Positions 24,423-51,727 of a stretch of 64,000 bases of DNA are shown piece by piece. Where the stretch lies: contig WJIY01000035.1 in assembly GCA_014730005.1 (NCBI GenBank), forward strand, positions 8,997-72,996, in the 5' to 3' direction. The stretch is from Candidatus Babelota bacterium. GTDB lineage: Bacteria > Babelota > Babeliae > Babelales > UASB340. Made by a program: the position numbers and the translations under genes. Each line of letters starts with the position of its first letter. Position 1 is the first letter of the stretch. Under the pieces are notes generated by a model. That model was not told the origin of the DNA. It saw only the letters and a program-made list of their open reading frames with translations, and made no database searches.

Positions 24423-24797
24423 CGGGGGCGTCACGGCTTCGACGTGATGTTTTGTGTTTTGAGAGCATGTCGAGTTTTGTATGGGAACTCGTAAAAAAAC
24501 ATTCAAAACAAAAAGTGCAGACAATAATGCTGCTGAAAATGTTGTATATGCCTAATTAAGGCGACAGCATTTTTCTTGTTAGTAAGATGTGTCTATCCAT
24601 CAAACTAACTCGTATTACCCTAGATAGAACTCTCTTGCAAGAATTTTTGGTTTTGTAACAAGAGAAAATCACTAAACCGGCTCTTATTTATTACTATGCT
24701 CTTGAGGTATAAATGAGAGTATATTCAGGAGCTAAACATGTAGTGCTTAAAATACTTTGCTTTGCGGACATGGGTTCGACTCCCATCGCCTCCACCA
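24423..24797 (+). ncRNA. ssrA: tmRNA (SsrA)
   Basis: The 5' GGGGGCG pairs with the 3' CGCCTCC, giving a G3:U pair, followed by an encoded ACCA. The T-arm is GGGTTCGACTCCC. The internal tag ORF GCA GAC AAT AAT GCT GCT GAA AAT GTT GTA TAT GCC TAA spans 24517..24555. Confidence 0.92.
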
Positions 24798-27527: not shown

Positions 27528-29174
27528 TTAATAATTTGAAATCCCATGATAATATAAAGATAGAACACCTAAACCGCTATAAGCACATATTACAAATGAC
27601 AAAAGCCCAACCAACAATACCTCTTCAGGATTTTCTCGCCAATTTTTAAAATATTTAAAAATACTATTTACTTTATCCTTAATAACCTGAAAATTCTCAT
27701 CATTTCTATGATTTAAAATAAATTTTCCAACTAAAAACATTATTGGCAAAGATAACAATATATTGGCTTTAAATTCAGTTGACGAAAAAGCTTTATTTTT
27801 ATTTTGCAGCCAAAAGCAAAATGTTAAATCATGTCCTTTTAAAATAAAACTAGATAATTCTTTTTCTATAACTTCAATTGTTTTTATATTTCTAGATTCT
27901 TTAGCACCACGATATTCATACAACAATTCCAAAAATTCATTTTTATTTCTCTTTAAATATGAAATCCATTGATCTTTATATGTTAATGAATTTAAATTTT
28001 TTATAGTTTTACTTAATATAAAAAACTCTTTTATAATCTTGAAAAAAGGATGGTCTAATATTTTAAAAAAAATTTTCTTTTTAACTTGACCTTCATTATT
28101 GGTATAACATTTCAAAGGATTTACTAATTTACTTACTAGGCGAGCAAAATAATTCGTACCTGCAACCAAAGAACGATTATAATATGAATCACAAAACAAT
28201 CCCCAAATTCCCGTTGGTTCAAAAAATAATTTTAAAAATCCAGTTAAAGTCAAAGAAAATTCTGGATCAAAATTAAAAATAATATTTCCATTATCCATGT
28301 GCATCTTTAATGGATAAAAGCTGCAATCTAAATTATATGGCTTATCGAGTAATAATTGTCTCCATTCAGTAATATCTCGCGGACCCAAAAAATATTCTTT
28401 TATAAATATTGAAAATTCAAAAAAAACTATGTATAAAAATATTTTTTTATATAATATATTTTTAAATATTTCTTTATAATCAAAAGAATTTTCTTTTTTT
28501 ATATAATTATTAAGCTCATTTTCTTCTTTTTTTAGCAAACCCTCCAATTCTTTTTTTCTATCATTATCTACAAAAATTTCATCCAATTCGCATTCATATT
28601 CATCTATTTTTTCAAATAGCTTTATCAAAGATAAATAATCATTTTTTATCTTTGTTGTAGCTTTTTCTACAAACAAATTTCGTAAAACATTTTTAAACCA
28701 CCGCTCTGCATATAAATCCATACCCCAAAGAGGGATTTTAACTAGATCACCATTACAAAGTTTTAAATCTATTTTTAGCTTTAATTTATTCGCCTCTTCA
28801 TGAGAAATATTATTATTTAATGTTTTTGCCAATCCAGACAATGGGATCTCTAATGGAACTTGTGCTATCTCTCTGCTTAAAAAATCACAAGCTTCTTTTT
28901 GCTTGTAAAATGCAGGATTTGAAATTTTATCAATCTCTTCTTCTGTTAAAGGTGGGTTGTTTTCATACTCTTTTAAAATTTCTTCTGCTTGAGCAATTGT
29001 TCCTTCGATATCAAAATTTTTTATAATATCAATATCATTTTTTACATCTACATTTTCTTGCACACAAAATAAAAATGACGTATTAAAAAAGATTAATGCT
29101 GATAAAAATAATCCCGCACCAAAATTATAAGACGTAAATGATAGTTTGATAAAATTAAATTGTTTTTTAAACAT
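27528..29174 (-). CDS. Hypothetical membrane protein (548 aa), immediately upstream of the ATAD3-like gene
   Basis: N-terminal hydrophobic segment (GLFLSALIFFNTSFLF), a mid-protein hydrophobic stretch (IFLYIVFFEFSIFI) and two C-terminal TMs. It lies 18 nt from the downstream AAA gene. I recognise no family. Confidence 0.55.
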   Translation of the reverse strand: MFKKQFNFIKLSFTSYNFGAGLFLSALIFFNTSFLFCVQENVDVKNDIDIIKNFDIEGTIAQAEEILKEYENNPPLTEEEIDKISNPAFYKQKEACDFLSREIAQVPLEIPLSGLAKTLNNNISHEEANKLKLKIDLKLCNGDLVKIPLWGMDLYAERWFKNVLRNLFVEKATTKIKNDYLSLIKLFEKIDEYECELDEIFVDNDRKKELEGLLKKEENELNNYIKKENSFDYKEIFKNILYKKIFLYIVFFEFSIFIKEYFLGPRDITEWRQLLLDKPYNLDCSFYPLKMHMDNGNIIFNFDPEFSLTLTGFLKLFFEPTGIWGLFCDSYYNRSLVAGTNYFARLVSKLVNPLKCYTNNEGQVKKKIFFKILDHPFFKIIKEFFILSKTIKNLNSLTYKDQWISYLKRNKNEFLELLYEYRGAKESRNIKTIEVIEKELSSFILKGHDLTFCFWLQNKNKAFSSTEFKANILLSLPIMFLVGKFILNHRNDENFQVIKDKVNSIFKYFKNWRENPEEVLLVGLLSFVICAYSGLGVLSLYYHGISNY

Positions 29175-29324: not shown

Positions 29325-29520
29325 ATCCGCTCACCCTACTAAGCCGCCATAGCCATGACATTAATGGGCGAATGTTGCAGTGATTTTGCAATGTTTACAA
29401 GAATTATATGTTTGCTCCAAAAAAGCTATAGTTGCCAAGAGTCACAATCGAGATGATTCTTCAATGCTATTTTGCAAAAATCACTCAGAATGAACGAGTG
29501 AAAAAATCATATCGAAGAGC
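29325..29520. other. GC-enriched intergenic island with a long imperfect hairpin; candidate structured RNA or gene relic
   Basis: CCGCTCACCCTACTAAGCCGCCATAGCCATGAC is conspicuously GC-rich in AT-rich surroundings. AGTGATTTTGCAA (29379..29391) pairs with TTGCAAAAATCACT (29472..29485), and AAGAAT (29399..29404) pairs with ATTCTT (29456..29461). Confidence 0.3.
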
Positions 29521-29584: not shown

Positions 29585-31945
29585 TTATGATTGTTTCCTA
29601 CTTTTCAAACTTCTTTTTGTTTTAGTTTTTCCTTTCTCTAATTTCTGTTTTTCTTCTTCTACCGCTTCTGAAACTCGAAAATATGGATCCTTGGTTATTT
29701 CTACAGATTTTGGCTGTTTAGCTCCATATGTATAATTATCAATTGGTCTAAATATTCCTTTTCTTGCATCTTCAATTTTTTCTCTTGCAGATTGCTTAGA
29801 TGGTTTAAAGAACCATCTTTGAATAGGATCTTTTTCTTTTGCATATGTATCAACATTAAGACTTTGAAACTTAGCATAATCAAGTTTTAATTGAGTATAT
29901 TCATCTGGAACACCTTCAAAACGAGGTTTGATAATACTTGGACGAATAAAGATATATAAATTAGATCTTTCTTTATTTTTTGTTTTACTTCTAAAAAGAT
30001 TCCCAATTAAAGGAATATCTCCCAGAATTGGAACTTTATATTGATTTTCAGTTAATTTACTTCTTGTAAGTCCACCCAAAACTAAAACTTCACCTGTCCC
30101 AATATTAACTCTCGTTGAAAGAACTCTATCATCAGTATTTGGACTTGTTCCAGTCACTTCTTGAAAGCTTGTAATATCAACATTAATTTTAAGATCAACA
30201 GTTCCATTCAAATTTACCTTAGGTGTTAGTTTTACTAAGGTAGATGCATCTTTATATTCTTTTTTAACTACTGCTTCCGTCCCTGTTCTATTATCCTGTA
30301 ATCCAGCATCAGCTTGACGAGTCTCTTTAGCCTCAACAAAACACTCTTGATAATTATTAGCTACTAAAAATGGTTGTGTAATAATATTGAAATTATCTTT
30401 TTTCAATATTGCTCGAACCAAGCCCCACAAATTTGAACTAGGACCAAACGACATATTTGTTCTAATAATGTTACGATCCGCATTGGTTGTTACAACTTTA
30501 ATATCAGATGAATCTTGCATTGTTCTAAATTGCATATTAATTCCAGCACCAAAATAATTTGGATGTTTTGGTTTAACTTGTGACCATAACTCATCATCTG
30601 TTTTAATCGAAACATCTACAACCATAACTTCAAAAGCAACTTGCGGTTGTGGTTTATCCAATTTATCTATAAATCCTTCTATTCTTTTCCAATCATCCTG
30701 GTTGCAAGCAATAATTAATCTATTGCCACCACCCTGTTGATCTCCCTGCGAAGAATCAGCCGCAATGATAACATCTTCAAAAAATTTATACTCACCAACT
30801 TTAATAGCTTTTCCTACACCCGCAGGAGGATTAACAAGATTAGTTAAAAGTGGTTGTAAATTTTCTGCCTTTGCATATTTAATTTCCTTTATGTGCAATC
30901 TTGATTCAGTTGCAGTAATTGGAACATCAATATATTTATAAACAAAAGCTATAATTTTATCTAAATTCTTTTCGGTACCCAGTAAAATTAAAGAATTATT
31001 TCTAGAATCCGGAATAATTCTTGTATCTTTTGAAAAATAACTGGAAGGTTTTTTAACATTAGAAGGCATAAATCTTATATTTCCTCTCTGTTGATCTCCC
31101 TGAGGAATAATCTCATTAAATAAGGTTACAACATCTTGAACATCTGCATATTTTAAAGGAATAATCTTTATCGATTCTCTCAATCCTCCTTGGTCTAATT
31201 CTTTTACAATTTTCATTGAAGCTTTAATATCAAGACATTTTGCTGTTATTATACAGGCATCAAGATCGCGATTAATTTGAACAGTCCCATCTATCATTGT
31301 AGAAAGAATACCTTGAACATTTTCTGCTTTTATATTTTTTAAAAAATATAAATAACGAACAACTAAATCACTATCAGGAAGTTGCTCCGGCTCTGTTCCT
31401 GTTGCAGATGAATAAAATGGAAGCGGCTGACTTTTATCTTCTACTTTAGGTACAATTCTATAAAGTCCATCAACATTTATAATTGAAAAATTATTCATCT
31501 CCAACAAAGTTAATAAAATATTCCAGGCACTATCTAAAGTTAATGCCTCACGAGTTGATAATGTTACATTGATACCATCAAGCTCCTTACGTGGAATAAT
31601 GTTTATCTTCTTTTGCTCAGACATATAATTTACAACACTTGATAATGACGCATTTTCAAAATTTAAATAAATACCTCCTTTGTTGTTTTTATCTACCTTT
31701 TTTTTATTGGATTCCTTACTTTTTTTATTAGATTTTTCTTGCTTAAACAATTCATTTTGTTCAACTGTAGGATTATTTATAATTTTTACATTAGGCGTAT
31801 TAAGAGCCTCAGTCTCATTTACTTGATTTATTGCTTTACCGGATTTTTTTAAATCTATAGATAGTAAAAAAAACGGTGTCATCATTAAAAATAACAGCAC
31901 CATTTTTTTTGATTTGAATAATTTTATAATTTCTTTTATCATCAA
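29585..31945 (-). CDS. Secretin (GspD/PilQ superfamily), copy 2 of the dual-secretin block
   Basis: Signal peptide and an N0-type start (GIYLNFENASLSSVVNYMSEQKKINIIPR). The secretin core ends VPILGDIPLIGNLFRSKTKNKERSNLYIFIRPSIIKPR and is followed by a 111-aa C-terminal extension. The true start may be the internal MVLLFLMM. Confidence 0.88.
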   Translation of the reverse strand: MMIKEIIKLFKSKKMVLLFLMMTPFFLLSIDLKKSGKAINQVNETEALNTPNVKIINNPTVEQNELFKQEKSNKKSKESNKKKVDKNNKGGIYLNFENASLSSVVNYMSEQKKINIIPRKELDGINVTLSTREALTLDSAWNILLTLLEMNNFSIINVDGLYRIVPKVEDKSQPLPFYSSATGTEPEQLPDSDLVVRYLYFLKNIKAENVQGILSTMIDGTVQINRDLDACIITAKCLDIKASMKIVKELDQGGLRESIKIIPLKYADVQDVVTLFNEIIPQGDQQRGNIRFMPSNVKKPSSYFSKDTRIIPDSRNNSLILLGTEKNLDKIIAFVYKYIDVPITATESRLHIKEIKYAKAENLQPLLTNLVNPPAGVGKAIKVGEYKFFEDVIIAADSSQGDQQGGGNRLIIACNQDDWKRIEGFIDKLDKPQPQVAFEVMVVDVSIKTDDELWSQVKPKHPNYFGAGINMQFRTMQDSSDIKVVTTNADRNIIRTNMSFGPSSNLWGLVRAILKKDNFNIITQPFLVANNYQECFVEAKETRQADAGLQDNRTGTEAVVKKEYKDASTLVKLTPKVNLNGTVDLKINVDITSFQEVTGTSPNTDDRVLSTRVNIGTGEVLVLGGLTRSKLTENQYKVPILGDIPLIGNLFRSKTKNKERSNLYIFIRPSIIKPRFEGVPDEYTQLKLDYAKFQSLNVDTYAKEKDPIQRWFFKPSKQSAREKIEDARKGIFRPIDNYTYGAKQPKSVEITKDPYFRVSEAVEEEKQKLEKGKTKTKRSLKSRKQS

Positions 31946-31959
31946 GGGTCCCTATAGTT

Positions 31960-32505
31960 TTACCCTACATACTTTTTGGTAGCTATAGTAAGATCAAAAT
32001 CTATTTTTTTATTATCAGTCTTTTTAATAACTAATTCTTTTATATAAACCATTTCAGTTTTTTCTAACAAATCAAGAATATTTACTAATTTTTGTGTTGT
32101 TTGATTTTTAAAGGTTGCAGAAATAACAACCTCATCAAATCTATCACTTCCCAGCAAAGGTTGAGTTATAGCTTCCCAGCCAGGTACAGGAAGAATTTGA
32201 TTTTGACTACAAAATTCTTCAAAAAAGGCTTTAATACTAAAATCTCTATTCTGCTCCAATAATTTTTGTAATTCTTGTTCTTTAGATTCCAATTCCTCAT
32301 ATTCTTGAATTATTTTTGTTGTTTTTCTAACTGTAGTCTCCATATTTTTTATTTTATCAAGTAAATTAGAACTTTTACTGTATATATAATAATTAATTAA
32401 TAACACTAAAATTGTTACGGTTATTAAAAATATAGCCAAATATCGTTCAAAATCTTTTTTATTAAGACTTTGTAAATAAGATGCAAAATCAACAAATATC
32501 TTCAT
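31960..32505 (-). CDS. PilO/GspM-like bitopic inner-membrane protein
   Basis: 181 aa with one TM (YLAIFLITVTILVLLINYYIY), a coiled coil and a small C-terminal alpha/beta-type domain. It sits between the pilM/N-like gene and a secretin. Confidence 0.55.
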   Translation of the reverse strand: MKIFVDFASYLQSLNKKDFERYLAIFLITVTILVLLINYYIYSKSSNLLDKIKNMETTVRKTTKIIQEYEELESKEQELQKLLEQNRDFSIKAFFEEFCSQNQILPVPGWEAITQPLLGSDRFDEVVISATFKNQTTQKLVNILDLLEKTEMVYIKELVIKKTDNKKIDFDLTIATKKYVG

Positions 32506-32506
32506 A

Positions 32507-34189
32507 TTACAATTCTTTTAATCGCAATTTTACAAAAAATTTTATTCCTTTATCTTCCACCAACCTTGAATCAATCTCTTCTTTTTCATCCCATAGTTTT
32601 AAAATTTTAGATTCAGAAAATCTTTTTTGAAGTTCTGCAAAATATCTAAAATGATCACTTCCAGTCTTTGATCTAAAAAATCCCTCAATTTCAATTTTTG
32701 TATCTGAATCTTGTTCAGATATAGCAATGGTTTCTATTGTTACATCAAATTTTCGTTTATCAATTATATTTGTCAATTCTTGCAAAATTACTAATGGACG
32801 AATTCCAGTTTTTTCAAACAACATCCATATTTCTTTTTTATCCTCAAGTACATTTTCCGCTTTTTGCGATAATTTTTGTAAATTAACCTGCCTTGGCAAG
32901 CTAATCTCTTTGGGAATCATTCTTCTTAATTTTGACTTTTCTCTATCTTCAATTCTTTGAATAAAAGATGAAAGCTTATTTATTTGAAAATAACCTCTAA
33001 TTATTAAAACAGTAAAAATCAAAAATAAAAGTAAACTAGCAGTTACAAGTTGACTTTTTACTAATTTTTTTTGTGGAAGAGAAAACTCCTTGCGCCTTAA
33101 ATCAAAATTTGCTTGTTGCTCTGAAGGCAAAGCGGTTCCCAAGGCAACTAAATATTTATTCCAACTCGAAATATATTCTTTTATTTTGTTTTTAAACTTA
33201 GTATCAACGAAAATTTTTTCAAAAGAAAAAACTTCACAAGGTATTTGTAATAAGTTTTGACTAAAACGAGAAAGTCCTTTTAATTCTGAATATTTACCTG
33301 TAAAAAACATTTTTGATATTTTTTGATAATCAACAATTTTCAAACTAAAAGAATTTAAAGTAAATTGAATATCATTAAAAAAATTTATAATATGTTTTTG
33401 TAAAGATTTTTCATAATTCGAATCACCTGTTGGATCCAAACCATATTTTTTTAATTTTTCTTGTGCCTGTTGCAAAGATATTTCTATTTCATTACTAACT
33501 GTCTTCAAAACAGTTAAAATTCCTCGAGGTATAATTCTTGTTAATCTCAAGCATCCTTCATCCAAAAAAGCAATCTGTGTTGAATGCGCTCCTAAATCTA
33601 TAATCACACTAGATTTTTCTATACTTTTATATTCAGGAATTTGTTTATAAAGACTATAAATTGCAAAAAGATCTACTGTCAAACAAGCAGGATCCACACC
33701 AGCTTGCAAGTACATATCAAGAGTTCGTTGAATATCTTCTTTTCTCACAGCCGCTACTAATATTTGTGAAGTTTTATCTTCTTTTGATTGTTTACTAATG
33801 ATAAAATCAATAATAGCTTCATCAACAGAAAAAGGCAGCATTGGTTCAATTTCATATTCTAAAATCATTCTGATTTTATCTTCATCTAAAAATGGAACTT
33901 TCAATTCTTTAAAGACAACTAAAGAAGCCGATAAAGCAATTCGAAGTTGATCATACTTTTCCATTCTTGCTACAACTTCTTTAATTGCTTGTGTAGCTCT
34001 TTCAGAATATGTTTGAATAGGACCATCTTCGATAGTCTGATCAATTAACTCTTCAATAATATTCTTTGATCTTTTGGCATAAATTTTTGCACAACTAACA
34101 ACATCTTCTTGTATAGTTAAACCTAAAATTTTTTGAGCATAAAGTCTTTTTGATCCAATTCTCGGAGGTAAAAAAATTCTTCTTATCAT
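32507..34189 (-). CDS. PilM-PilN fusion protein (GspL-like architecture)
   Basis: The first ~350 aa are an actin-like/PilM-type domain (ILGLTIQEDVV..., VIIDLGAHSTQIAFL). Next come a TM (LVTASLLLFLIFTVLIIRGYF) and a ~170-aa periplasmic domain. The start overlaps the upstream secretin stop by ATGA. Confidence 0.65.
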   Translation of the reverse strand: MIRRIFLPPRIGSKRLYAQKILGLTIQEDVVSCAKIYAKRSKNIIEELIDQTIEDGPIQTYSERATQAIKEVVARMEKYDQLRIALSASLVVFKELKVPFLDEDKIRMILEYEIEPMLPFSVDEAIIDFIISKQSKEDKTSQILVAAVRKEDIQRTLDMYLQAGVDPACLTVDLFAIYSLYKQIPEYKSIEKSSVIIDLGAHSTQIAFLDEGCLRLTRIIPRGILTVLKTVSNEIEISLQQAQEKLKKYGLDPTGDSNYEKSLQKHIINFFNDIQFTLNSFSLKIVDYQKISKMFFTGKYSELKGLSRFSQNLLQIPCEVFSFEKIFVDTKFKNKIKEYISSWNKYLVALGTALPSEQQANFDLRRKEFSLPQKKLVKSQLVTASLLLFLIFTVLIIRGYFQINKLSSFIQRIEDREKSKLRRMIPKEISLPRQVNLQKLSQKAENVLEDKKEIWMLFEKTGIRPLVILQELTNIIDKRKFDVTIETIAISEQDSDTKIEIEGFFRSKTGSDHFRYFAELQKRFSESKILKLWDEKEEIDSRLVEDKGIKFFVKLRLKEL

Positions 34190-36942
34190 GCCAAACTCCT
34201 CCGCTTCAATCCTGAAGTTTGGCGCCTCTTCATTTTATTTGATAATTGATTAAGATTTATATTTTCTTTAATCCTAATATTGTCTGTTCTTCTATAATTC
34301 GACTTAACATTTTCATTATTAGCTAACCTAGAATGCCTGTTAAACTGTTGCTTTTCCTCATTTATAGACTGCTTATGGGTATTATTACTATTTTCTATTT
34401 GATTAGCTTCAGGTTTTGTAATAATTAAAGATTTTAACTCTTCTCGTTTTTCATCATCTACAGATATTTTCTTATCCTGAGTATCCTGATGAATAGTCAT
34501 TTGATCTCCTGCAATTAACTCCTTTAATTTTTTTCTCTTATACTCTAAATCTCTATCTTTTTTTTGGTCATCTGTTTTAGATTTAATTTCTTGAATTCTA
34601 CGTTCAGCTTGTAAATCTGCATCTAAAATATCTTCTTCTTCTTCTTTTTCATCTTTTAAATGTACTCGATAATAAGGATCGTGTTTTATATCAACAGTAG
34701 TGGGTTGATATCTTGCATTTGCAAAATCCGTAACTTTATGAGAATAATCCTCTTTTTCCGGATTAAAAAACCAATTATGAATAGGATCTTTAGTTTTTTT
34801 AGTTTGAACCGCATCTTCTATATAATCAGTGGCATCATGAAGTTTCATTCTTGTATAAAGATTTATACCCGGCTGTTGGCGTGGTTTTATAATTGTTGGT
34901 GACATAAAAACAAAAACATAATTTTTTTGAACTTCACGTTTTTTATTTTTAAACATCCATCCAAGCCCAGGAATATCACCTAGAAGAGGAGTTTTATTTT
35001 GACTTTCCGTTACCTTTGTCCTAATAAAACCACCTAAAACTAATACCTGACCATCTGCTACAGATACATCTGTTGTTAATGTTTTTTCATCTTTATTACC
35101 CAAGCTAGCATTTGTAAACTCACTAAAAACAACATTAATTGTTAATCTTATAATTCCATCCAAATTTATTTGAGGGGTTATTTTTAAATCAGTATTGGCT
35201 GAAACATACGTATAACCTTTTAATGCTCCACCTGCAGTTTCCTGTTGTACGACATGTTGAGTACTTCCAACAACAATATTAGCCTGAGTCTTATTAGTTA
35301 CAGTAAAAAATGGCTGAGATAAAATGCTTGCATTTGATTGGCTCTTTAATGCCTTAAAAATTCCCCAAATATTTTCACCCTTACCAAATGTTAAAATACT
35401 TGAACCAAGTCCTCCAGTTAATCCATAAAACATATTTCCAAGCAAACTATTTTCTGCAACACCTTGTTGGTATCCTTTTTCTACTGTTCCTGCAAAAGTA
35501 GGAGACTGAAAATTAACACCTTTTCCAATTTGACCTTCATATTTATTACGAATTGCACCGCCTAATTCCTTTTCATCATCCATATTAACAGTTACTATTA
35601 ATGTTTCTATTCCAACTTGCGGTTGAGGCTTATCTAAATCTTCAATCGTTTTTTTTAATAACTTCCAATCTTGTTTATCAGTAGTTGATACAATCAAGCG
35701 ATTACCATCTTTATCAACTTGAAATTTCATCGGTTTGAAATATTTTACCCCTCCTCGTACTGCTCCATATTTAGATGCAACTTCTTCTTTGCTTGCAGTT
35801 ACAGATTCCAAAATCTCTTTTGCTTGAGCTGCATCTATATGCTGCAACTCATAAATATGCAAGGGCGATTGCGCACCTTTTAATTCTTTATCAATATTAT
35901 TTGTAATAAAATCTTCAATTTTTTTAATTGATTTTTGATTGCCAAGCAAAATCAAAGAATTTGTTCTCTTTTCATCGATAATTCTGGTTGTTGGAGAAAA
36001 ATATTCAAGAGAACTTTCAGCTTGTTTACCAAGCAATCGAGCAATTGGATTTGGTTGCTCTGGTCTTTGAATTAAACTATCCAGTAATCCTTTCACATCT
36101 GTTGCATTTGCCCTTTTTAATTTTATTACAACAACCGATTCTTGCAATCCTGTCTGATCTAATTCACGAATAACTTTCATTGCAGATCTAATATTAAAAG
36201 ATTTATCAGTAATAATCATTCCATTTATTTCAGGATATAAAACTAAAGAATGCTCCGGACTCAACATACTTTTTAATAAATCCTGTATCGTGGTAACACT
36301 TATATTTTGCAAAAAAGGAACATATCTTATATTCGCATCACTTTCTGGTAAAGTATCTAAGGGAACATTTATATACGAAGGCAAAGGCTGAACTGTTTTT
36401 TGTTTTTTAGGAATAACAACACTTACATCACCCCTTTCGATAATGCTAAATCCAGCCATATCAAGAACTGTCAAAAATACTCTCCAAGCACCTTCAACCG
36501 TTAATGGTTCACGGATTGTTAAAGAAACTTTTACTCCTTGAAGAGCCTTATCTGGCATTAAATTAATTTGTTTAAGTTCTGCAATACGATTTATAAAATT
36601 TGAAAGCTCCGCATTCTCAAAATTTAAATATATTTTTCCATCACAATCGATTTTTTTATTACTCAATTTAGGAAATTCTCTCTCTTCTTTATTTTCATTA
36701 ATTAAATTATTATTATCTTTTTTCTTTGTAAAATCCTCAACCTTTTCATCTGTAGGTATATCACTATTTAATATTTCAACAACACTTTCTTTTTCTATTT
36801 TTTCAACTAATTTTTCTTTTTGATCACTTAAAACATTTTTATCTGAAAAATCCTCCGTTGATCTTTTTTTTAATTGAGCAGTCTGCGCCTGCATAGTTAA
36901 AACACAAATAAAAGGAATCAATAAAATTATAAATTTTTTCAT
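34186..36942 (-). CDS. Secretin (GspD/PilQ superfamily), copy 1 of the dual-secretin block, with a long C-terminal tail
   Basis: Signal peptide (FICVLTMQAQTA) and an N0-type block (KIYLNFENAELSNFINRIAELKQINLMPD). The secretin core ends TPLLGDIPGLGWMFKNKKREVQKNYVFVFMSPTIIKPR and is followed by a 230-aa extension. Confidence 0.88.
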   Translation of the reverse strand: MKKFIILLIPFICVLTMQAQTAQLKKRSTEDFSDKNVLSDQKEKLVEKIEKESVVEILNSDIPTDEKVEDFTKKKDNNNLINENKEEREFPKLSNKKIDCDGKIYLNFENAELSNFINRIAELKQINLMPDKALQGVKVSLTIREPLTVEGAWRVFLTVLDMAGFSIIERGDVSVVIPKKQKTVQPLPSYINVPLDTLPESDANIRYVPFLQNISVTTIQDLLKSMLSPEHSLVLYPEINGMIITDKSFNIRSAMKVIRELDQTGLQESVVVIKLKRANATDVKGLLDSLIQRPEQPNPIARLLGKQAESSLEYFSPTTRIIDEKRTNSLILLGNQKSIKKIEDFITNNIDKELKGAQSPLHIYELQHIDAAQAKEILESVTASKEEVASKYGAVRGGVKYFKPMKFQVDKDGNRLIVSTTDKQDWKLLKKTIEDLDKPQPQVGIETLIVTVNMDDEKELGGAIRNKYEGQIGKGVNFQSPTFAGTVEKGYQQGVAENSLLGNMFYGLTGGLGSSILTFGKGENIWGIFKALKSQSNASILSQPFFTVTNKTQANIVVGSTQHVVQQETAGGALKGYTYVSANTDLKITPQINLDGIIRLTINVVFSEFTNASLGNKDEKTLTTDVSVADGQVLVLGGFIRTKVTESQNKTPLLGDIPGLGWMFKNKKREVQKNYVFVFMSPTIIKPRQQPGINLYTRMKLHDATDYIEDAVQTKKTKDPIHNWFFNPEKEDYSHKVTDFANARYQPTTVDIKHDPYYRVHLKDEKEEEEDILDADLQAERRIQEIKSKTDDQKKDRDLEYKRKKLKELIAGDQMTIHQDTQDKKISVDDEKREELKSLIITKPEANQIENSNNTHKQSINEEKQQFNRHSRLANNENVKSNYRRTDNIRIKENINLNQLSNKMKRRQTSGLKRRSLA

Positions 36943-36952
36943 AAATTAGTCC

Positions 36953-38080
36953 CTATCTCCTAACCCTATGATCCATCGATCTTTTTTTCATATTTTCAAG
37001 CAATCTTTGCCTGATATCAGAAATAACTTTTTGTCGCTCAGGAGTTTGATGTTGTTTTTCAAATTTTTTAAGTTGTGCTTCTCGTTGCTGTTCAGAACTC
37101 ATTTTAAAACTCGGCACACCCTTAAGATCATCTTCTTTTGCAGATTCAATAAAAAACTGTTTTTTAGGCTTTTCTATTTCTGCTAATTTATAATTTATTT
37201 TTTTTTCATAATCATTTCTTTTTAATAGCAATTTAATTTCATCTCCCAACTGCATCTGCATAATATTATCATAAACTTTAATTCGGTTTTTATAATTCCT
37301 CAAATCCAGATCATTAATTGATAACAAAATATCATTTTTATTCAAACCAATAATAGATCCAATATCATTTGGTTCAATAATTCCAACCTTTATTCCAATA
37401 GCCTCTCCATCTTTATACGCTGTACTTAAATTCAATTCCTCTATTAAATTTCCCATAGTAGGTATTTTTTTAATAAATTCATTTGGATCAATTTCAAAAT
37501 TTTGCTCATCAATTTTTTTAATCACATATTGCCATTTATTTTTAGTTTGTTCATCTGGCGGCATTAATTCATCTTTTCTCAATAAATAAATTTCTTGTTG
37601 ACCATTTGCACGAAGAATTATAACCTTATTTTTTTCTATTTTTACAACCTGACCATCTTTTATTTTATCTGACAAATGATAAACCTTTTCCTTTCCTGTT
37701 TCATCGATTATCATTGCCACACTTTTATTTTCATTTGATGCAAAAACAATACCTTTAATAGATATATTTAAAGGATCTACAAATTCTTGTACTTGCACAG
37801 GAGGAGGAGGAACAAATTTTGGAGGTCGAAACTCCGGAACAGGCGTAATTAAACTTTTCTGCAATATCTGTTTTTCTTCAGGAGTAAAAGTATCAAACAA
37901 ATCTTGTTTATAAATTTTCGAAATATTAATCGCTATAGGTATTTTTTTTTTTTCAAATTCTTTAGTGATCGGTCTTACACTAAATATAGGCGGTTTTTGC
38001 TGTAAAATTATATTTAAAAACAGCATCATACCAAATATTAATAATAATGAACTATTTAAAACCCACAATGATAATCTCAT
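36953..38080 (-). CDS. GspC-like protein (TM, HR/PilP-like domain, PDZ domain)
   Basis: N-terminal TM and a Pro-rich linker (PPKFVPPPPVQ). The HR-type block is LNISIKGIVFASNENKSVAMIIDETGKEKVYHLSDKIKDGQVVKIEKNKVIILRANGQQEIYL. The C-terminal PDZ-like block is GIKVGIIEPNDIGSIIGLNKNDILLSINDLDL. Confidence 0.7.
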   Translation of the reverse strand: MRLSLWVLNSSLLLIFGMMLFLNIILQQKPPIFSVRPITKEFEKKKIPIAINISKIYKQDLFDTFTPEEKQILQKSLITPVPEFRPPKFVPPPPVQVQEFVDPLNISIKGIVFASNENKSVAMIIDETGKEKVYHLSDKIKDGQVVKIEKNKVIILRANGQQEIYLLRKDELMPPDEQTKNKWQYVIKKIDEQNFEIDPNEFIKKIPTMGNLIEELNLSTAYKDGEAIGIKVGIIEPNDIGSIIGLNKNDILLSINDLDLRNYKNRIKVYDNIMQMQLGDEIKLLLKRNDYEKKINYKLAEIEKPKKQFFIESAKEDDLKGVPSFKMSSEQQREAQLKKFEKQHQTPERQKVISDIRQRLLENMKKRSMDHRVRR

Positions 38081-38108: not shown

Positions 38109-38138
38109 AAGATAATTTTTGATTGTTTAAATTGTCAA
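38109..38138 (-). promoter_or_regulatory. Candidate internal promoter ahead of the gspC-like gene
   Basis: On the minus strand there is TTGACA (38138..38133), an 18-nt spacer, then TATCTT (38114..38109). This lies in the only sizeable gap (87 nt) of the block, and AAGG precedes the ATG. Confidence 0.3.
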
Positions 38139-38167
38139 GAAAATCCTGATACATTTAATATGATAGC

Positions 38168-39157
38168 TTATGGTGAAGGAATTGTTCTAAGTATCTTTTG
38201 TACAATCTGATCAGTGGTTACATTTTCAGCCTCAGCTTGATATGTAAGCAAAATTCTATGCCTTAAAACATCGGTAGCTATAGACTTAATATCATCAGGA
38301 ACAACAAAATGCCTTTGTTTTAAAAAAGCATATGCTTTTGCTGCATGATGTAATGTTAATGTAGCTCGAGGAGAAGCACCGTATTCAATAAGACTGCTTA
38401 CTTCTTCAAGTCCTGATATTTCTTTAGGAAATCTCGTCGCAAATACAATTTTCAAAATATATTCCACCACTTTTTCATCTATATAAATTTGTTCAACTAA
38501 CTTTTGACTCTCTCTAATCTCTTGTTTACCAATTACCTTATTTATTTCTTCGGGTTGAAAAACTTTTTCAATAATCAATCTTTCTTGTTCATATTCTGGA
38601 TATGTGATTAGCAATTTAAACATAAAACGATCAACTTGCGCTTCAGGCAATCTATATGTCCCTTCTTGTTCAATGGGATTTTGAGTGGCCAACACCAAAA
38701 AAGGAACTTCCAAATGATAAGTTTTATCTCCTATCGTTACCTGGTGTTCTTGCATTACTTGCAATAATGCGGATTGTACTTTTGCAGGTGCCCTATTTAT
38801 TTCATCAGCAAGCACTAAGTTTGCAAAAATCGGGCCTTTTTTTGTTTGAAATTCCTGAGTTTTTGGATTATAAATCAAGGTGCCAATTAAATCTGCAGGT
38901 AATAAATCGGGAGTAAATTGTATTCGTTTATATTCTAATCCAATAGCTTGCGCAATACATTTAATTAAGGTCGTTTTTGCCAAACCAGGAACACCCTCTA
39001 ATAAAATATGCCCATTACAAAGCAATCCAATAAATATACGTTCAACAATTTCATCTTGTCCAATAATACCTTTTCTTACTTCGTTTTTTAATGTATTCCA
39101 CCTAATGGCATGTTCTTTTATAATCTGTGTAATTTCTTGTGTATTTTCAGATCGCAT
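38168..39157 (-). CDS. MoxR-family AAA+ ATPase
   Basis: GHILLEGVPGLAKTTL, FTPDLLPADLIG and LADEINRAPAKVQSALLQVMQEHQVTI are classic MoxR blocks. The protein is 329 aa. Confidence 0.88.
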   Translation of the reverse strand: MRSENTQEITQIIKEHAIRWNTLKNEVRKGIIGQDEIVERIFIGLLCNGHILLEGVPGLAKTTLIKCIAQAIGLEYKRIQFTPDLLPADLIGTLIYNPKTQEFQTKKGPIFANLVLADEINRAPAKVQSALLQVMQEHQVTIGDKTYHLEVPFLVLATQNPIEQEGTYRLPEAQVDRFMFKLLITYPEYEQERLIIEKVFQPEEINKVIGKQEIRESQKLVEQIYIDEKVVEYILKIVFATRFPKEISGLEEVSSLIEYGASPRATLTLHHAAKAYAFLKQRHFVVPDDIKSIATDVLRHRILLTYQAEAENVTTDQIVQKILRTIPSP

Positions 39158-39169
39158 AAAAAATCCCCA

Positions 39170-40471
39170 TTAATTTTTACAATCTATTTTAAATTTCAAC
39201 ATCTTATCTTGTAACTGCAATTTAGTTAAATTTAATTTATTTGATACCTGCTTAATATCATAATGATTTTTTTTTATTTGATAAATTAAAAATTGTTTTT
39301 CAAATTCATCTTTCGCTTCATCTAAAGAATTAAAACTTAAAAATGATTGTTCTTCTATTATTTGTAATTTATTTTCAGGAATAAATTGGGACAACACTTG
39401 AGGACTTATAATTTCTATTTGATCTGTTGTAACTCTAACGATTTTATTTATAGTGGCTTCCAATTGTTCAACATTTCCAAACCAATTATAATTTCTCATA
39501 AATCTAATGCTCTGATTATTAAATAAAATATTTTTTTTATATTTTTTATTATATTTATTTAAAAAATAGTCAACTAGTAGTGGAATATCATATCTTCTTT
39601 TATTTAACGGGGGAATTTCAATAGGTGTTATATTTAATTTTAAAAATAAAGATTTACTAAATTTACCCTGTTGCATCAATTCAAATAATGAACAAGAAGC
39701 AGAAGCAACTATTCTTGTTTTTATACAACTTCTCTTTTCCAGTTTATAATCAAAATATTTTTGTAAATAAAATGACATTTTTTCAACATTTTTTAAAAAT
39801 AAAATACCGTTTTCATTACTCAATGCAGCTTCCATTTCTCTACAAACCTCTTGTTCACAAATATTTGTACCATTTATTAAAAAAAATTGCGAATCATCAA
39901 ATTTGTTTAATTTTTGTATAAATTTTATAAAAGTGGTCTTTCCACTTCCATGTTGTCCGTAAATCAATAATGGAAATGGTAAAAAGGCGACCTGTTTTAT
40001 TTGTTGAATTAATTCTAAAAATAAATAACTTTGACCAACAATTCCATATTCTTTTAAATCTTCAATTTCATCTTTTTTCAAAACTTTATTTGGATTTTCA
40101 TTATTTTTTTTAAGAAAACTTAGCTTTGATAAAATTTCATCAAGATTTAAAGGTTTTTCTATAAAGTCCAAAGCTCCTTTTTTGGTTGATTCTATTGCTA
40201 TAGGAATATTTCCAAATCCTGAAATCATAATAACTTTTTGTTGAGGATATTCTTTTTTTATTTTTTCAAGCAAGTCAATTCCATTACAATTTGGCATAAA
40301 AATATCCAATAAAACTAAATCTGGTAATAATTCACCAATTTTATCTAAAGCACAATTACCATTTTGCAAAGTTTGAACTCTATATCCTTCATCTTCTAAT
40401 GCTTCTTTTAAAGTCTTTAAAATAGTTATCTCATCATCAATTACTAATAAGAAAGGTTTTTGCTCTGTCAT
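39170..40471 (-). CDS. NtrC-family response regulator (REC, degenerate sigma-54-type AAA+, Fis-type HTH)
   Basis: The REC domain is intact (DD12-13, D56, S84, K106). The AAA+ core has Walker A GQHGSGKT, but ~16 aa spanning the GAFTGA loop are missing, Walker B reads LFLKNVEKM, and FREDL.YRL reads FSKSLFLKL. WFGNVEQLE and a C-terminal HTH are retained. Confidence 0.75.
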   Translation of the reverse strand: MTEQKPFLLVIDDEITILKTLKEALEDEGYRVQTLQNGNCALDKIGELLPDLVLLDIFMPNCNGIDLLEKIKKEYPQQKVIMISGFGNIPIAIESTKKGALDFIEKPLNLDEILSKLSFLKKNNENPNKVLKKDEIEDLKEYGIVGQSYLFLELIQQIKQVAFLPFPLLIYGQHGSGKTTFIKFIQKLNKFDDSQFFLINGTNICEQEVCREMEAALSNENGILFLKNVEKMSFYLQKYFDYKLEKRSCIKTRIVASASCSLFELMQQGKFSKSLFLKLNITPIEIPPLNKRRYDIPLLVDYFLNKYNKKYKKNILFNNQSIRFMRNYNWFGNVEQLEATINKIVRVTTDQIEIISPQVLSQFIPENKLQIIEEQSFLSFNSLDEAKDEFEKQFLIYQIKKNHYDIKQVSNKLNLTKLQLQDKMLKFKIDCKN

Positions 40472-40485
40472 AATAAAATTTCCAA

Positions 40486-41229
40486 TTATTTTGTTTTAAT
40501 AGGCCCCTGTTCCAAACCTCTTATAAATTGGTAAACATAAGGATTATCACATTCCCAAATAGTCTGTGCCGGTCCAGTATAAATTATTTTTCCTTCATGC
40601 AACATCGAAACAGTTTTAGCATATTTAAAAACCTCAATATCATGAGAAATTACAATACTGGTAGCATTTAAATCCTGGTGAGTTTTTTCAATGAGCTCAT
40701 GAATTAATCTAACTGTAATTGGATCTAAGCCTGTTGTAGGTTCATCGTACATAATAATTTGTGGTGTTAACATCAATGTTCTAGCTAATCCAACTCTTTT
40801 TTTCATACCGCCGGAAAGTTCTGCTGGATATTTTTCTAAAACATCTTCCTCTAGACCTACATTCTTTATTTTTTCAAGAACCAATGGTCTAACCTTTTCA
40901 GGATCTTCTCCTTCTTCTAATAATGTTATTCCAACATTTTGAAAAACATTTAACGAATCTAAAAGAGCTGCAAATTGAAAAACATATCCACATTTTTTAT
41001 AAATTTCATGAAGTTCTTCTTTATTTAACTTACTAATATCTTGATTATCAATTATAATTTGACCAGAATCTGGTTTTATTAAACCAATTATTTGTTTTAA
41101 AAGTACAGATTTACCTTCACCCGATCTTCCAATTATTGCCATAAAATCATGTCTTTTAATTTCAAGATCAAGGCCATCAGTTATAATTTTAGAATCAAAA
41201 GATTTTTTTAAATTTCTTATCTTTATCAT
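40486..41229 (-). CDS. mlaF: ABC transporter ATP-binding protein, MlaF-like
   Basis: GRSGEGKS Walker A, LSGGMKKRVGLARTL signature, IMYDEPTTGLD Walker B and a VISHD H-loop. It is paired with an MlaE-type permease. Confidence 0.8.
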   Translation of the reverse strand: MIKIRNLKKSFDSKIITDGLDLEIKRHDFMAIIGRSGEGKSVLLKQIIGLIKPDSGQIIIDNQDISKLNKEELHEIYKKCGYVFQFAALLDSLNVFQNVGITLLEEGEDPEKVRPLVLEKIKNVGLEEDVLEKYPAELSGGMKKRVGLARTLMLTPQIIMYDEPTTGLDPITVRLIHELIEKTHQDLNATSIVISHDIEVFKYAKTVSMLHEGKIIYTGPAQTIWECDNPYVYQFIRGLEQGPIKTK

Positions 41230-41238
41230 TAGGTATCT

Positions 41239-42015
41239 TTAAAACATAAGAGAAGTAAGAATATAATCAGCAACAAATATTGTAACATTTGCAATAACAA
41301 CACTTTGAGTTGTTGATATACCAACACCTCTAGCACCACCTCTTGTTGTATATCCCTTAAAGGCACAAATTAATGAAAATAAAAAACCAAAAAATACTGC
41401 TTTTATCAGCCCATTAGTAATATCAGATAAATGCACATTTTCTCTAATAGATTCCATATACAATTCAGAACTTATACCTAAAACATTTACGGACATAAAA
41501 TATCCAGCCCAAATTCCACACAATGAACAAAAAATAGAAAGAAACGGCAAAATTATAGTTGAAGATACAATTCTTGGAACAATCAAATACTGTTGTGTAT
41601 TTATACATAATGTTTTTAAAGCATCTATTTGTTCAGTAATTCGCATCGTTCCAATTTCAGCAGTCATTGCAGAACCAGCTCTTCCTATAACCATGATTGC
41701 AGTAAGAACCGGTCCAAATTCTCTTGTCATTGCTATAAATATTATTGGGCCAATAAAACGTTCTGCACCAAACCTATGTAAACCCTCATAACTTTGTACA
41801 GCCAAAACAGCACCTACAGTTATACCTATCAAAATAATTACACTTAAAGAACTAACGCCTATAAAATACATCTGATAAATTATTTTTTTTATTTTAGGTT
41901 TAGTTGAAAAAAGAGTAACTAAAGAATCATATAAAAATAAACCGACATTACCAACGTTATTACAAGCTTCTATTGAAACTTTCCCTATAAAATCAATGAT
42001 ATCAACAAACACCAT
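41239..42015 (-). CDS. mlaE: ABC transporter permease, MlaE-like
   Basis: REFGPVLTAIMVIGRAGSAMTAEIGTMRITEQIDAL is the MlaE/YrbE signature region. Confidence 0.8.
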   Translation of the reverse strand: MVFVDIIDFIGKVSIEACNNVGNVGLFLYDSLVTLFSTKPKIKKIIYQMYFIGVSSLSVIILIGITVGAVLAVQSYEGLHRFGAERFIGPIIFIAMTREFGPVLTAIMVIGRAGSAMTAEIGTMRITEQIDALKTLCINTQQYLIVPRIVSSTIILPFLSIFCSLCGIWAGYFMSVNVLGISSELYMESIRENVHLSDITNGLIKAVFFGFLFSLICAFKGYTTRGGARGVGISTTQSVVIANVTIFVADYILTSLMF

Positions 42016-42055: not shown

Positions 42056-42385
42056 TTACTTTGGCTGCTGAATCGGTACAACATCCTTTTTTGCCTTCTC
42101 TTGAGTTTGTGTTATCGGTGAAGACTGTTTAATTCTGGTAGAACCGTATTCTTTATACTTTAAAATCGTTAATCCAAGTGCCCCTAAAATAAATAATGCA
42201 CCCATAACCCATGTTACTTTTTCAAAAAAATCTTGGCCGCCAGATCCACCAAATAACATTTGGCTTCCACCACCGAGACCACCTAATCCCATATCACCTT
42301 TGCCTTGCTGAATCAAAATTATGAATCCTAAAAGCACACATAAAATAATAAAAAGTATCATAAAAAAAATTACCATTTTTTTCAC
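42056..42385 (-). CDS. secG: Preprotein translocase subunit SecG
   Basis: LIQQGKGDMGLGGLGGGSQMLFGGSGGQDFFEKVTWVMGALF is the SecG Gly-rich loop between two TMs. The tpiA-secG arrangement supports the call. Confidence 0.88.
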   Translation of the reverse strand: MKKMVIFFMILFIILCVLLGFIILIQQGKGDMGLGGLGGGSQMLFGGSGGQDFFEKVTWVMGALFILGALGLTILKYKEYGSTRIKQSSPITQTQEKAKKDVVPIQQPK

Positions 42386-42422: not shown

Positions 42423-43193
42423 TTATAATTTTACTATTTTTTCAAATTCTTGGAAATCTAAACTTGCACCCCCTATCAAAAAACCATCTAAATTTGGGAT
42501 TTTTTTAAAATCAATAACATTTGATGAATCCACACTTCCACCATAAATCAATTTAAAGTTAATTTCAGAATACTTTTTTTTTGAATTTAAAAAAAGCCAA
42601 TCAAAAATTTTTTCTAAATCTTCTAATTTTGGTATTTTACCACTACCAATAGCCCAAATAGGTTCATATGCAATAAAAATAGATTTACCTACAAAAATAT
42701 TCAAATTTTTTTCTATTATGTCAAAAACATGTTTAAGTTGACATTTTAAAATATCAACAACCTTATCTAATTTTTTTGTCTTTTTTGGCTCACCAATACA
42801 AATTATAGGGGAAATTTGATTTTTGACTAATAAATCTGCCTTTAACGCAATATCTTTATCAGTTTGTTTTTCTTCTTTTCTAACTTCACTATGTCCAATA
42901 ATGCAATATTTACAATCAACTTCACTTAAACTAATAACAGATATTTGACTTGTAAAAGAACCTTTCAAATGTTTTGAACAATCTTGAGCACCTAATTGAA
43001 CTGAAGAATTATTAAATAATTTATTGATCGGATACAACCCAAGATAAGAAGGACATAAAATAATATCATGCTCCAGAGATAACTTTATAAAAGAATCTCT
43101 ATTTGTACCTGAAAAATAAATTTCATCATTTAGACTAAAGTTCATTTTCCAATTAGCTATGTAAAATAATTTTTTTTGATTTTTTTTTCTCAT
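42423..43193 (-). CDS. tpiA: Triosephosphate isomerase
   Basis: ANWKMN, IIGHSEVR, AYEPIWAIGSG and GGASL blocks are present. Confidence 0.92.
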   Translation of the reverse strand: MRKKNQKKLFYIANWKMNFSLNDEIYFSGTNRDSFIKLSLEHDIILCPSYLGLYPINKLFNNSSVQLGAQDCSKHLKGSFTSQISVISLSEVDCKYCIIGHSEVRKEEKQTDKDIALKADLLVKNQISPIICIGEPKKTKKLDKVVDILKCQLKHVFDIIEKNLNIFVGKSIFIAYEPIWAIGSGKIPKLEDLEKIFDWLFLNSKKKYSEINFKLIYGGSVDSSNVIDFKKIPNLDGFLIGGASLDFQEFEKIVKL

Positions 43194-43386
43194 AAAAATA
43201 TTTTTTTTAAAATAACTTTAATTAAACTTTGAGTACCTAACTATTAATGCTATGATTCAAGATAACTTAATTTAGATTTTTTTCTACCTTTGCCATTTAT
43301 AACAATCTAAGGTATGCCTTGACGAAAAGTGAATTTAAAGTAAGCTCAAAACTTGCATTTAACAAGGATTTTTTAAGAAAAACTTA

Positions 43387-51310: not shown

Positions 51311-51727
51311 TCAATTTGAAATTATTACATAAGAAATCGCATAATCTTTTTCATGTGACAAAGAAAGAAAATTATTCAGTCGAGGTAATTTGTTTTCTAT
51401 TTTATTCTCAAAAATCTTCCAATCAATATTTAATTGAGGAACACCCCAAACCGGTTTAATAATTTCTACGTTTTTACATGAAAACAAAAATGAAAAATTG
51501 TTTTTTATATATCCTAAGTTAACCAAAGTTGCACTCAAAGCTTTAAAAAATGCTTCTTTTGAGGAAAAACGAGATGCTAAACATTGCAATTCTATTTCGC
51601 CATTCTTTTTTACACAAGACTCAATTTCCCGTAACGAAAATATTTTAAGTAATTGTTCAACTTTATATTTTTCCCACGATTTAAAACGTTCAATTCTAAT
51701 AATATCAACTCCAATTCCCAAAATCAT
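51311..51727 (-). CDS. acpS: Holo-[acyl-carrier-protein] synthase
   Basis: ILGIGVDIIRIERF, FSSKEAFFKAL and SLSHEKDYA blocks are present. Confidence 0.85.
   Translation of the reverse strand: MILGIGVDIIRIERFKSWEKYKVEQLLKIFSLREIESCVKKNGEIELQCLASRFSSKEAFFKALSATLVNLGYIKNNFSFLFSCKNVEIIKPVWGVPQLNIDWKIFENKIENKLPRLNNFLSLSHEKDYAISYVIISN

Follow-up and report, generated by a model that had tools for sequence, protein, structure and literature searches.

Can a response regulator built like NtrC act on transcription once its AAA+ domain has lost the parts that contact sigma-54 and hydrolyse ATP? The question is raised by a gene in a 64,000-nucleotide stretch of DNA from a Candidatus Babelota bacterium (assembly GCA_014730005.1, contig WJIY01000035.1, positions 8,997 to 72,996 of the forward strand; hereafter the window). 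The gene encodes a protein of 433 amino acids, here called the regulator, that comprises a receiver (REC) domain, a degenerate AAA+ domain with its lid, and a Fis-type helix-turn-helix (HTH), and that matches at 100% identity a database entry (P0001) named 'response regulator [Candidatus Dependentiae bacterium]'. An earlier note, made from the sequence alone, had described the regulator as an NtrC-type bacterial enhancer-binding protein (bEBP) with an intact receiver and a gutted AAA+ engine. The reading that we favour, and hold to be reasonably probable, is that the regulator is an 'atypical', sigma-54-independent NtrC-family response regulator of the Dependentiae, the AAA+ domain of which binds nucleotide and does not hydrolyse it.

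The evidence that carries this reading is a set of deletions and substitutions in the AAA+ domain. Motif spacings were taken from a MAFFT alignment of the regulator, 119 homologues, NtrC1 of A. aeolicus (1ny5) and NtrX of Brucella (5m7n); the family under consideration consists of the best 120 homologues, which are 417–477 amino acids long and 43–66% identical. In the regulator 49 residues separate the Walker A lysine from the Walker B position, as compared to 65 in NtrC1 and 61 in NtrX (the spacing within the family is mostly 41–50). Exactly 16 residues are thus missing with respect to NtrC1, in agreement with the gap of about 16 residues that the earlier note had taken to remove the sigma-54-contacting GAFTGA loop (L1). 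The distance from Walker B to sensor I is 29 residues in the regulator and 39 in both NtrC1 and NtrX, which reveals a second deletion, of 10 residues, that eliminates the L2/pre-sensor-I hairpin (FxRVGGxxxI) and that the earlier note had overlooked. Moreover, when the family profile was aligned with NtrX using hhalign, gaps were placed at the same two sites (L1 and L2). The Pfam profile Sigma54_activat (PF00158), suggested earlier as a check on the deletion, matches the regulator in fragments only, the best stretch covering profile positions 1–64 of 168, which confirms it. A shifted GAFTGA or an intact Walker B Asp-Glu pair was looked for in the 120 homologues, and neither was found: a pattern check of the family for G[AS]F[TS]G gave no match, and the Walker B Asp-Glu pair is present in 0 of 120, a single member having the Asp.

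The catalytic residues have fared no better, with the exception of the P-loop. The Walker A motif, GQHGSGKT, is intact, and across the family G172 and G177 are found in 120 of 120 members and G175 in 118, while at position 178 there are 114 Lys and 6 Arg. In 111 of the 120 the next residue (179) is Thr or Ser, so that the motif is of the classical GK[T/S] type, whereas canonical bEBPs have GKE. At the Walker B equivalent (LFLKNV) both acidic residues are replaced, and the replacements are those of the family as a whole: Lys occupies the Asp position in 116 of 120 members, and Asn or His the Glu position in 113. The arginine-finger region, FREDL(Y/F)YRL in canonical bEBPs, reads FSKSLFLKL; in the family its first Arg has become Asn (89 members) or Ser (15), and its second is Lys in 71 of 120 and otherwise variable. 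The sensor I Asn is likewise lost. In the sensor II block (WFGNVEQLE) W330 is invariant and the arginine of GNVREL is gone, position 335 being Thr, Ala or Ser across the family with Arg in only 6 of 120. Of the features of a canonical bEBP as represented by PF00158, then, the regulator has the Walker A core, and GAFTGA, the L2 hairpin, the Walker B Asp-Glu pair and the arginines of the arginine finger and sensor II are wanting. As judged from the alignment, the AAA+ domain is a bare core that keeps its P-loop and from which the elements for sigma-54 contact and ATP hydrolysis are absent. The description of a gutted engine therefore holds for hydrolysis and for sigma-54, and does not hold for the P-loop, the conservation of which suggests that the binding of nucleotide is probably retained. 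Given the established mechanism of bEBPs, these losses argue, as had been claimed, that the regulator would be unable to act as a sigma-54 activator or as an efficient ATPase.

The receiver presents the opposite picture. Its Pfam match (PF00072; residues 9–117) scores 99.4 bits against a cutoff of 30.2, and the phospho-acceptor and switch residues, all of which except F103 the earlier note had listed as kept, are invariant: D12, D13, D56, S84, F103 and K106 are found in 120 of 120 homologues. (Every motif quoted in that note was found in the regulator, including D12, D13, D56, S84 and K106 of the receiver, LFLKNVEKM at residues 224–232, FSKSLFLKL at 271–279 and WFGNVEQLE at 330–338.) Mean pairwise identity within the family is 69% in the receiver, the highest of any domain, 43% in the alpha/beta part of the AAA+ domain, 49% in the lid, 50% in the HTH and 15% in the linker, and 38 columns of the alignment are invariant. 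Because the domains are far more conserved than the linker, and because the substitutions at K227 and N/H228 are fixed, the degenerate AAA+ domain is evidently maintained by selection. Every family member with a named source comes from Dependentiae, Babeliales or TM6, and the alignment indicates that the architecture of the regulator is under purifying selection across this family.

The remaining domains were delimited by profile searches and modelling. Pfam E-values were 1.8e-28 for Response_reg, 1.9e-18 for Sigma54_activ_2 and 1e-15 for AAA_lid_14; the short Sigma54_activ_2 model (PF14532) is matched end to end by residues 145–289, and the lid by residues 291–367. The Fis-type HTH that had been proposed for the C-terminus is supported in part. 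HTH_8 alone is sub-threshold in Pfam (E 0.06, 13.5 bits versus a cutoff of 22). Against this, the HTH of the regulator aligns column for column with that of NtrX when the family profile is used in hhalign, its consensus (SLxEAxxxFEKxFLxxLLKKNxYDxxQVSxRLNLxxxQLxxKxLK) is conserved, and in the AlphaFold2 model it forms a three-helix unit (residues 383–401, 406–412 and 417–426) with a predicted local distance difference test (pLDDT) score of about 90–95. The model as a whole, which was built from the family alignment (mean pLDDT 90.6), has a five-stranded AAA+ core without loop insertions, followed by the lid. When it was compared to the PDB with Foldseek, the top match was full-length Brucella NtrX (E 2e-30), followed by NtrC1, NtrC4, LuxO, VpsR and FleQ; target-normalised TM-scores against the AAA+ domains of NtrC1, PspF and FleQ were 0.75–0.79. 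Among PDB sequences, the regulator is matched best by A. aeolicus NtrC1 (1ny5) and Brucella NtrX (5m7n).

As an outgroup we used non-Dependentiae bEBPs, which made up most of what a scan of metagenomes with the family profile returned. The nearest of these relatives are 26–32% identical to the regulator and score at most 213 bits in phmmer, as compared to at least 372 bits inside the family. G[AS]F[TS]GA is found in 27 of 36 outgroup sequences and a Walker-B-like hhhDE in 34 of 36, and the outgroup relatives shown all keep the L2 hairpin and FREDLFYRL. Similarly, canonical group I bEBPs (NtrC1, NtrC4, NtrC, PilR, AtoC and ZraR) are homologous to the regulator in REC, AAA+ core, lid and HTH (except in truncated constructs), and keep the features for sigma-54 coupling and hydrolysis that the regulator has lost. 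Note that one outgroup sequence shares the Walker B change: on a contig of 53% GC from outside the Dependentiae (L158, MRWF01026626.1, match 10001–11338) there is an unrelated atypical enhancer-binding protein (EBP) that has lost 5 residues of L1, in which Walker A is degenerate (GDSGTDKE) and Walker B reads LFLKDI, which argues that the Asp-to-Lys substitution arose more than once.

NtrX of Brucella abortus (5m7n, 5m7o and 5m7p) is the closest likeness in architecture, combining REC, a GAFTGA-less AAA+ domain and a Fis-type HTH. It aligns with the regulator family over 408 columns, HTH included (hhalign probability 100, E 4.7e-54), and the two have in common the receiver signatures ISG(H/F)GNI and GAxDFIEKP; NtrX (NF051870) is also the best NCBIfam model for the regulator. 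Unlike the regulator, however, NtrX retains the sensor II Arg and FREDLFHRL as well as the Walker B Asp-Glu pair and the FxRVGG L2 hairpin, it falls short of NtrC1 in the L1 region by only some 4 residues, and it has a cognate kinase, NtrY, whereas no ntrY-like kinase adjoins the regulator gene. Membership of the NtrX equivalog was rejected, the score of 215.9 bits being far under the cutoff of 600 and an adjacent NtrY being absent. Moreover, true NtrX (152 bits) is no closer to the regulator than are canonical, GAFTGA-bearing relatives (at most 213 bits), which argues that the regulator is not an NtrX orthologue. It may nevertheless work like NtrX without being one.

EBPs that are independent of sigma-54 and work with sigma-70 are a well documented class. 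TyrR, HupR, HsfA, PhhR, NtrX and VpsR are characterised atypical EBPs without GAFTGA (PMC6158489), and the regulator falls within the class as defined there, namely by homology to EBPs in the absence of a functional sigma-54 contact loop. VpsR of Vibrio cholerae (7v2b), a structural match at E 5e-21 with 20% identity in the structural alignment, has no GAFTGA, has ND at Walker B and activates a sigma-70 promoter (PMC6158489); according to PMC10274813, it does so with no need of ATP. The aligned AAA+ region of VpsR is about 20 residues longer than that of the regulator (160–387 versus 141–348), indicating that VpsR keeps more of the loops, and, unlike what we propose for the regulator, VpsR binds cyclic di-GMP (c-di-GMP) and has no need of phosphorylation (PMC6158489 and PMC10274813). 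The latter paper also describes the NtrC proteins of Rhodobacter capsulatus and Caulobacter as phosphorylation-dependent REC-AAA+-HTH proteins that have L1/GAFTGA deletions and work at sigma-70 promoters, and states that R. capsulatus NtrC requires the binding of ATP and not its hydrolysis (PMC10274813). These two proteins differ from the regulator in having an adjacent NtrB kinase, and losses of L2, the arginine finger and sensor II are not reported for them in the text consulted (PMC10274813). Finally, NtrX of Ehrlichia and Anaplasma keeps a 'sigma-54 interaction domain', binds directly to promoters and has a link with the infection cycle; in Ehrlichia, an obligate intracellular organism, no sigma factors other than sigma-70 and sigma-32 have been identified (PMC9937504). 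Those NtrX proteins belong to Alphaproteobacteria and have NtrY as a known partner, whereas the regulator is from another phylum.

The regulator gene lies in a string of co-directional genes on the minus strand that extends from tpiA to the second of two secretin genes (Table 1) and includes a block resembling a type II secretion system or type IV pilus (GspC-like to second secretin; 29585..38080). The earlier note had placed the regulator at the head of the moxR/secretin string. This did not hold up; because the gene starts 14 bp past the mlaF stop and ends 12 bp ahead of moxR, it is situated within the string, and the secretin block has a promoter of its own (see below). In six related loci, with regulators 46–56% identical to that of the window, the order mlaE-mlaF-regulator is kept in all six (in one with an inserted opposite-strand gene), tpiA-secG is found upstream in five, and moxR-gspC-secretin-pilM/L-x-secretin downstream in five. 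The gap between the regulator gene and moxR is 12–27 bp in most of these loci and is a 4-nt overlap in one, which suggests translational coupling. The locus of a TM6 genome (L004, GCA_000989955.1) has the regulator without a moxR/secretin block adjoining it; two eukaryote-like genes, for a UCH ubiquitin hydrolase and for a cyclin-domain protein, lie near the regulator there (1256–2584 and 12545–13315). In another locus, from a complete 1.45-Mb genome (L001, CP064957.1), a gene some 5.5 kb upstream of the regulator (4209–4472) specifies a stand-alone 87-amino-acid protein with a Fis-type HTH_8 domain.

Table 1. Features of the window discussed in the text (coordinates are positions in the window; residues are those of the regulator)
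Feature	Coordinates	Strand	Basis or remarks
TTGA-N23-TCAAG block; promoter reading CTTGAC(G/T)-N16-TA(A/T)NNT at 43318-43346	43318-43349	+	
tpiA	42423-43193	-	ORF (open reading frame); TIM Pfam at homologous positions in 5/6 related loci
secG	42056-42385	-	ORF; SecG Pfam at homologous positions in 5/6 related loci
mlaE	41239-42015	-	Pfam MlaE 4e-77
mlaF-like ABC ATPase	40486-41229	-	Pfam ABC_tran 3.7e-31
Response-regulator gene (433 aa)	39170..40471	-	ORF and Pfam
Receiver (REC) domain, residues 7-120	40112..40453	-	D12, D13, D56, S84, F103, K106
Walker A/P-loop, residues 172-179	39935..39958	-	Intact
L1/GAFTGA deletion site and degenerate Walker B, residues 196-232	39776..39886	-	Stretch flagged in the earlier note
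Walker B equivalent, residues 224-229	39785..39802	-	Asp to Lys, Glu to Asn
Second deletion (L2/pre-sensor-I hairpin), residues 245-253	39713..39739	-	FxRVGGxxxI absent
Arginine-finger region, residues 271-279	39635..39661	-	Replaces FREDL(Y/F)YRL
Sensor II block, residues 330-338	39458..39484	-	GNVREL arginine gone
C-terminal Fis-type HTH, residues 374-428	39188..39352	-	Family consensus, hhalign, AlphaFold2
moxR (AAA_3 ATPase)	38168-39157	-	Pfam AAA_3 7.9e-65, AAA_lid_2
Sigma-70-type promoter CTTGACA-N18-TATCTT, in 87-bp moxR-gspC gap	38109..38139	-	Alignment of five genomes
GspC-like	36953-38080	-	Pfam T2SSC
Secretin	34186-36942	-	Pfam Secretin, Secretin_N, N0 for block
PilM/GspL-like	32507-34189	-	Pfam PilM_2, T2SSL
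181-aa ORF	31960-32505	-	
Second secretin	29585-31945	-	
Terminator-like hairpin past second secretin	29481..29501	-	Consensus match; 4 sites versus 3.8 expected

In the gap between moxR and gspC both hexamers of a sigma-70-type promoter are invariant in five genomes (homologous sites are found in L001, L002, L126 and L127), the regulators of which are just about 48–56% identical to that of the window; in L126 about 12 nt lie between the moxR stop and the -35 element. The GspC/secretin block thus has its own predicted -35/-10-type promoter. The non-consensus -10 hexamer and the bases that follow it (G.TA.TCTA) are largely conserved too, and this may reflect a further constraint, for instance a site for a regulator or the region of the start site. 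By contrast, a search of the window for the -24/-12 consensus (TGGCAC-N5-TTGCW), which the earlier note had named, together with rpoN, as a refuting observation, gave matches at chance level, with 184 at three or fewer mismatches (shuffled sequences gave 173 ± 12) and not one at 0 or 1. With respect to the major sigma factor, an open frame on the plus strand at about 62900–64000, which runs off the end of the window, has a Lys-rich N-terminus with DPVKLYLKEIGKIPLLNKETEKIIADKI, the conserved start of RpoD, and is preceded by dnaG (61123–62889) in the classic dnaG-rpoD order.

The only other match in the 64 kb to the pattern CTTGAC-N16-19-TANNNT, apart from the moxR-gspC promoter, is at 43318, within a block that is conserved in the window, L001, L002 and L127. 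This block was considered as an operator or leader RNA of the regulator operon and was rejected in that role; it has no Rfam match, and in L126 it accompanies the divergent gene, of 446 amino acids there, and not tpiA. Positions 43318–43346 are therefore better read as the promoter of the divergent 448-amino-acid gene of unknown function and mreB. (A generic promoter and terminator scan returned 79 promoter-like sites versus 86.7 expected and is uninformative in DNA of 26–30% GC such as this; GC content in the window is 22–32%.)

A scan of 51 window ORFs for HisKA and HATPase_c domains (of the 57 ORFs that reach 100 amino acids, the remaining six having 103–163) gave no hit, and neither did the 10 kb on either side of the regulator in the six related loci, in keeping with the claim that the gene has no adjacent histidine kinase. 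Several other genes of the window were noted in passing. A third secretin of 560 amino acids (53352–55034, minus strand) lies beside small ORFs of unknown function and an M23 peptidase, and in a reduced genome three secretin genes within 64 kb are unusual. Immediately past the secretin cluster, on the minus strand, are genes for a 528-amino-acid classical AAA ATPase and a 548-amino-acid protein with no Pfam match (25923–27509 and 27528–29174). The window is rich in AAA+/P-loop ATPases, which in addition to the regulator and MoxR include a Mg-chelatase-like protein (51724–53250) and a HerA-like protein (22618–24327). A tmRNA gene (24424–24797, plus strand) encodes the tag peptide ADNNAAENVVYA.

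The earlier note had proposed that the protein probably acts as a sigma-70-type response regulator or as a scaffold, a suggestion that seems reasonable. These observations can be accommodated in the following way. A histidine kinase encoded elsewhere in the genome would phosphorylate the regulator at D56, and phosphorylation would alter its dimeric or oligomeric state. The AAA+ domain, by analogy with the mechanism of bEBPs and with the atypical EBPs, would serve as an assembly scaffold that binds nucleotide without hydrolysing it, and the HTH would bring the protein to -35/-10 (sigma-70-type) promoters, transcription from which it would activate or repress. Its most likely targets would be the envelope and secretion genes nearby, that is mlaEF, moxR and the GspC-secretin-PilM/L block, and it would neither contact nor remodel sigma-54. 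The conserved HTH, the -35/-10 promoter ahead of gspC and the RpoD N-terminus in the window count in favour of this scheme.

Several points weigh against it. No DNA-binding site, regulon or kinase came out of the analysis; inverted repeats, which the earlier note had suggested as candidate binding sites, amounted in three intergenic regions to AT-rich palindromes, none of them distinctive. The recognition helix is less basic than that of NtrC or Fis, and HTH_8 falls below the Pfam threshold. The tight and at times overlapping junction between the regulator gene and moxR could instead point to a partnership at the protein level. Furthermore, PMC10274813 indicates that the function of Caulobacter NtrC depends on its Walker B Asp, which argues that loss of hydrolysis is not general among EBPs without GAFTGA. 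Lastly, Dependentiae may or may not carry rpoN: in a search of genome contigs with an AT-biased RpoN-box pattern, AGAAGAACWRTWGCWAAATATAGA, the matches listed (at least 120) were all from other phyla or from unnamed metagenome-assembled genomes, with none titled Dependentiae among them.

We considered whether the regulator might act outside transcription altogether, as a phosphorylated pseudo-ATPase that works on MoxR and/or on assembly of the GspC-secretin-PilM/L apparatus in the capacity of adaptor, scaffold or mixed-ring subunit, with an HTH that is vestigial or a dimerisation element. That moxR directly follows the regulator gene in five of six related loci, with the short gaps and single overlap described above, would fit such a role, as would the conservation of the AAA+ core despite loss of the catalytic residues, and a secretin-block promoter that looks strong and invariant and has no conserved upstream operator. 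The HTH, however, is no less conserved than the AAA+ domain (50% versus 43% mean identity) and aligns fully with the DNA-binding domain of NtrX, and L004 retains the regulator with neither moxR nor the secretin block alongside. No characterised NtrC-family protein is known to act in this way, which also counts against the idea, and we regard it as rather unlikely. An account that refines the transcriptional reading rather than excluding it is that the AAA+ domain is a ligand sensor, in which the P-loop and the Lys at the position of the Mg2+-coordinating Asp would read ATP/ADP or another nucleotide in addition to phosphorylation. Walker A is conserved as a classical GK[T/S], the Asp-to-Lys change is fixed in 116 of 120 homologues and is not drifting, there are crystal structures of NtrX with ATP and with ADP (5m7n and 5m7p), and VpsR and FleQ bind c-di-GMP through their AAA+ domains (PMC6158489). 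An energy parasite that takes in ATP from its host could profit from such a sensor, and C. destructans apparently depends on host ATP by way of ADP/ATP exchange (PMC6561590). Yet a by-eye reading of the alignment revealed none of the arginine motif with which proteins of the FleQ type bind c-di-GMP, and we give the sensor a low probability.

Two further possibilities are answered by the family alignment. Some homologues carry the automatic name 'sigma-54-dependent Fis family transcriptional regulator' (JGI labels some NtrX), and PF00158 scores above its gathering threshold, as though the regulator still worked as a sigma-54 activator by means of shifted or unconventional motifs. But L1 and L2 are absent through deletions of 16 and 10 residues, neither a GAFTGA-like motif nor the Asp-Glu pair occurs in any of 120 homologues, and the window is without -24/-12 promoters, the secretin block having one of the -35/-10 type; the shifted-motif reading is contradicted by the sequence, and we rejected it as extremely improbable. 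Alternatively, the regulator might be a decaying remnant, functionally a pseudogene, as could be suggested by the loss of many catalytic residues in a lineage that depends on hosts and has undergone genome reduction (PMC4776705, PMC6561590). An ORF that is intact in 120 homologues of about 417–477 amino acids, with 38 invariant columns, 69% identity in REC, fixed substitutions at K227 and N/H228, conserved gene order and a confidently modelled fold is incompatible with decay, and we accord this reading virtually no credence and set it aside. At the other extreme, the regulator could be a Dependentiae-wide master regulator with a hydrolysis-dead nucleotide sensor, through which phosphorylation and host ATP together would switch an MlaEF/MoxR/double-secretin programme during infection of protists, possibly by way of contact with MoxR; this we consider quite doubtful.

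The interpretation that we prefer, an atypical NtrC-family regulator acting independently of sigma-54, overturns nothing and is unlikely to surprise a specialist. What is new is the degree of reduction (L1, L2, Walker B, sensor I, arginine finger and sensor II are gone and the P-loop is kept), the fixation of Lys at the position of the Walker B Asp, and the fact that a large Dependentiae family conserves the protein within a fixed envelope/secretion neighbourhood. In the searchable papers on Dependentiae genomes there is no mention of response regulators, sigma factors or two-component systems, and a literature search on sigma-54, two-component systems and regulators in Dependentiae/TM6 returned nothing relevant. 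The regulator is the most reduced natural example of a bEBP found in this analysis and, because both loops and all catalytic residues other than the P-loop are gone and the domain is still selected, it would provide a clean test of what the AAA+ domain of an EBP does once it has ceased to be a motor. The Dependentiae, a widespread phylum of protist parasites, are almost uncultured, and the conservation of the regulator, the lack of a nearby histidine kinase and its constant envelope/secretion neighbourhood make it a prime candidate for a regulator of their interaction with the host.

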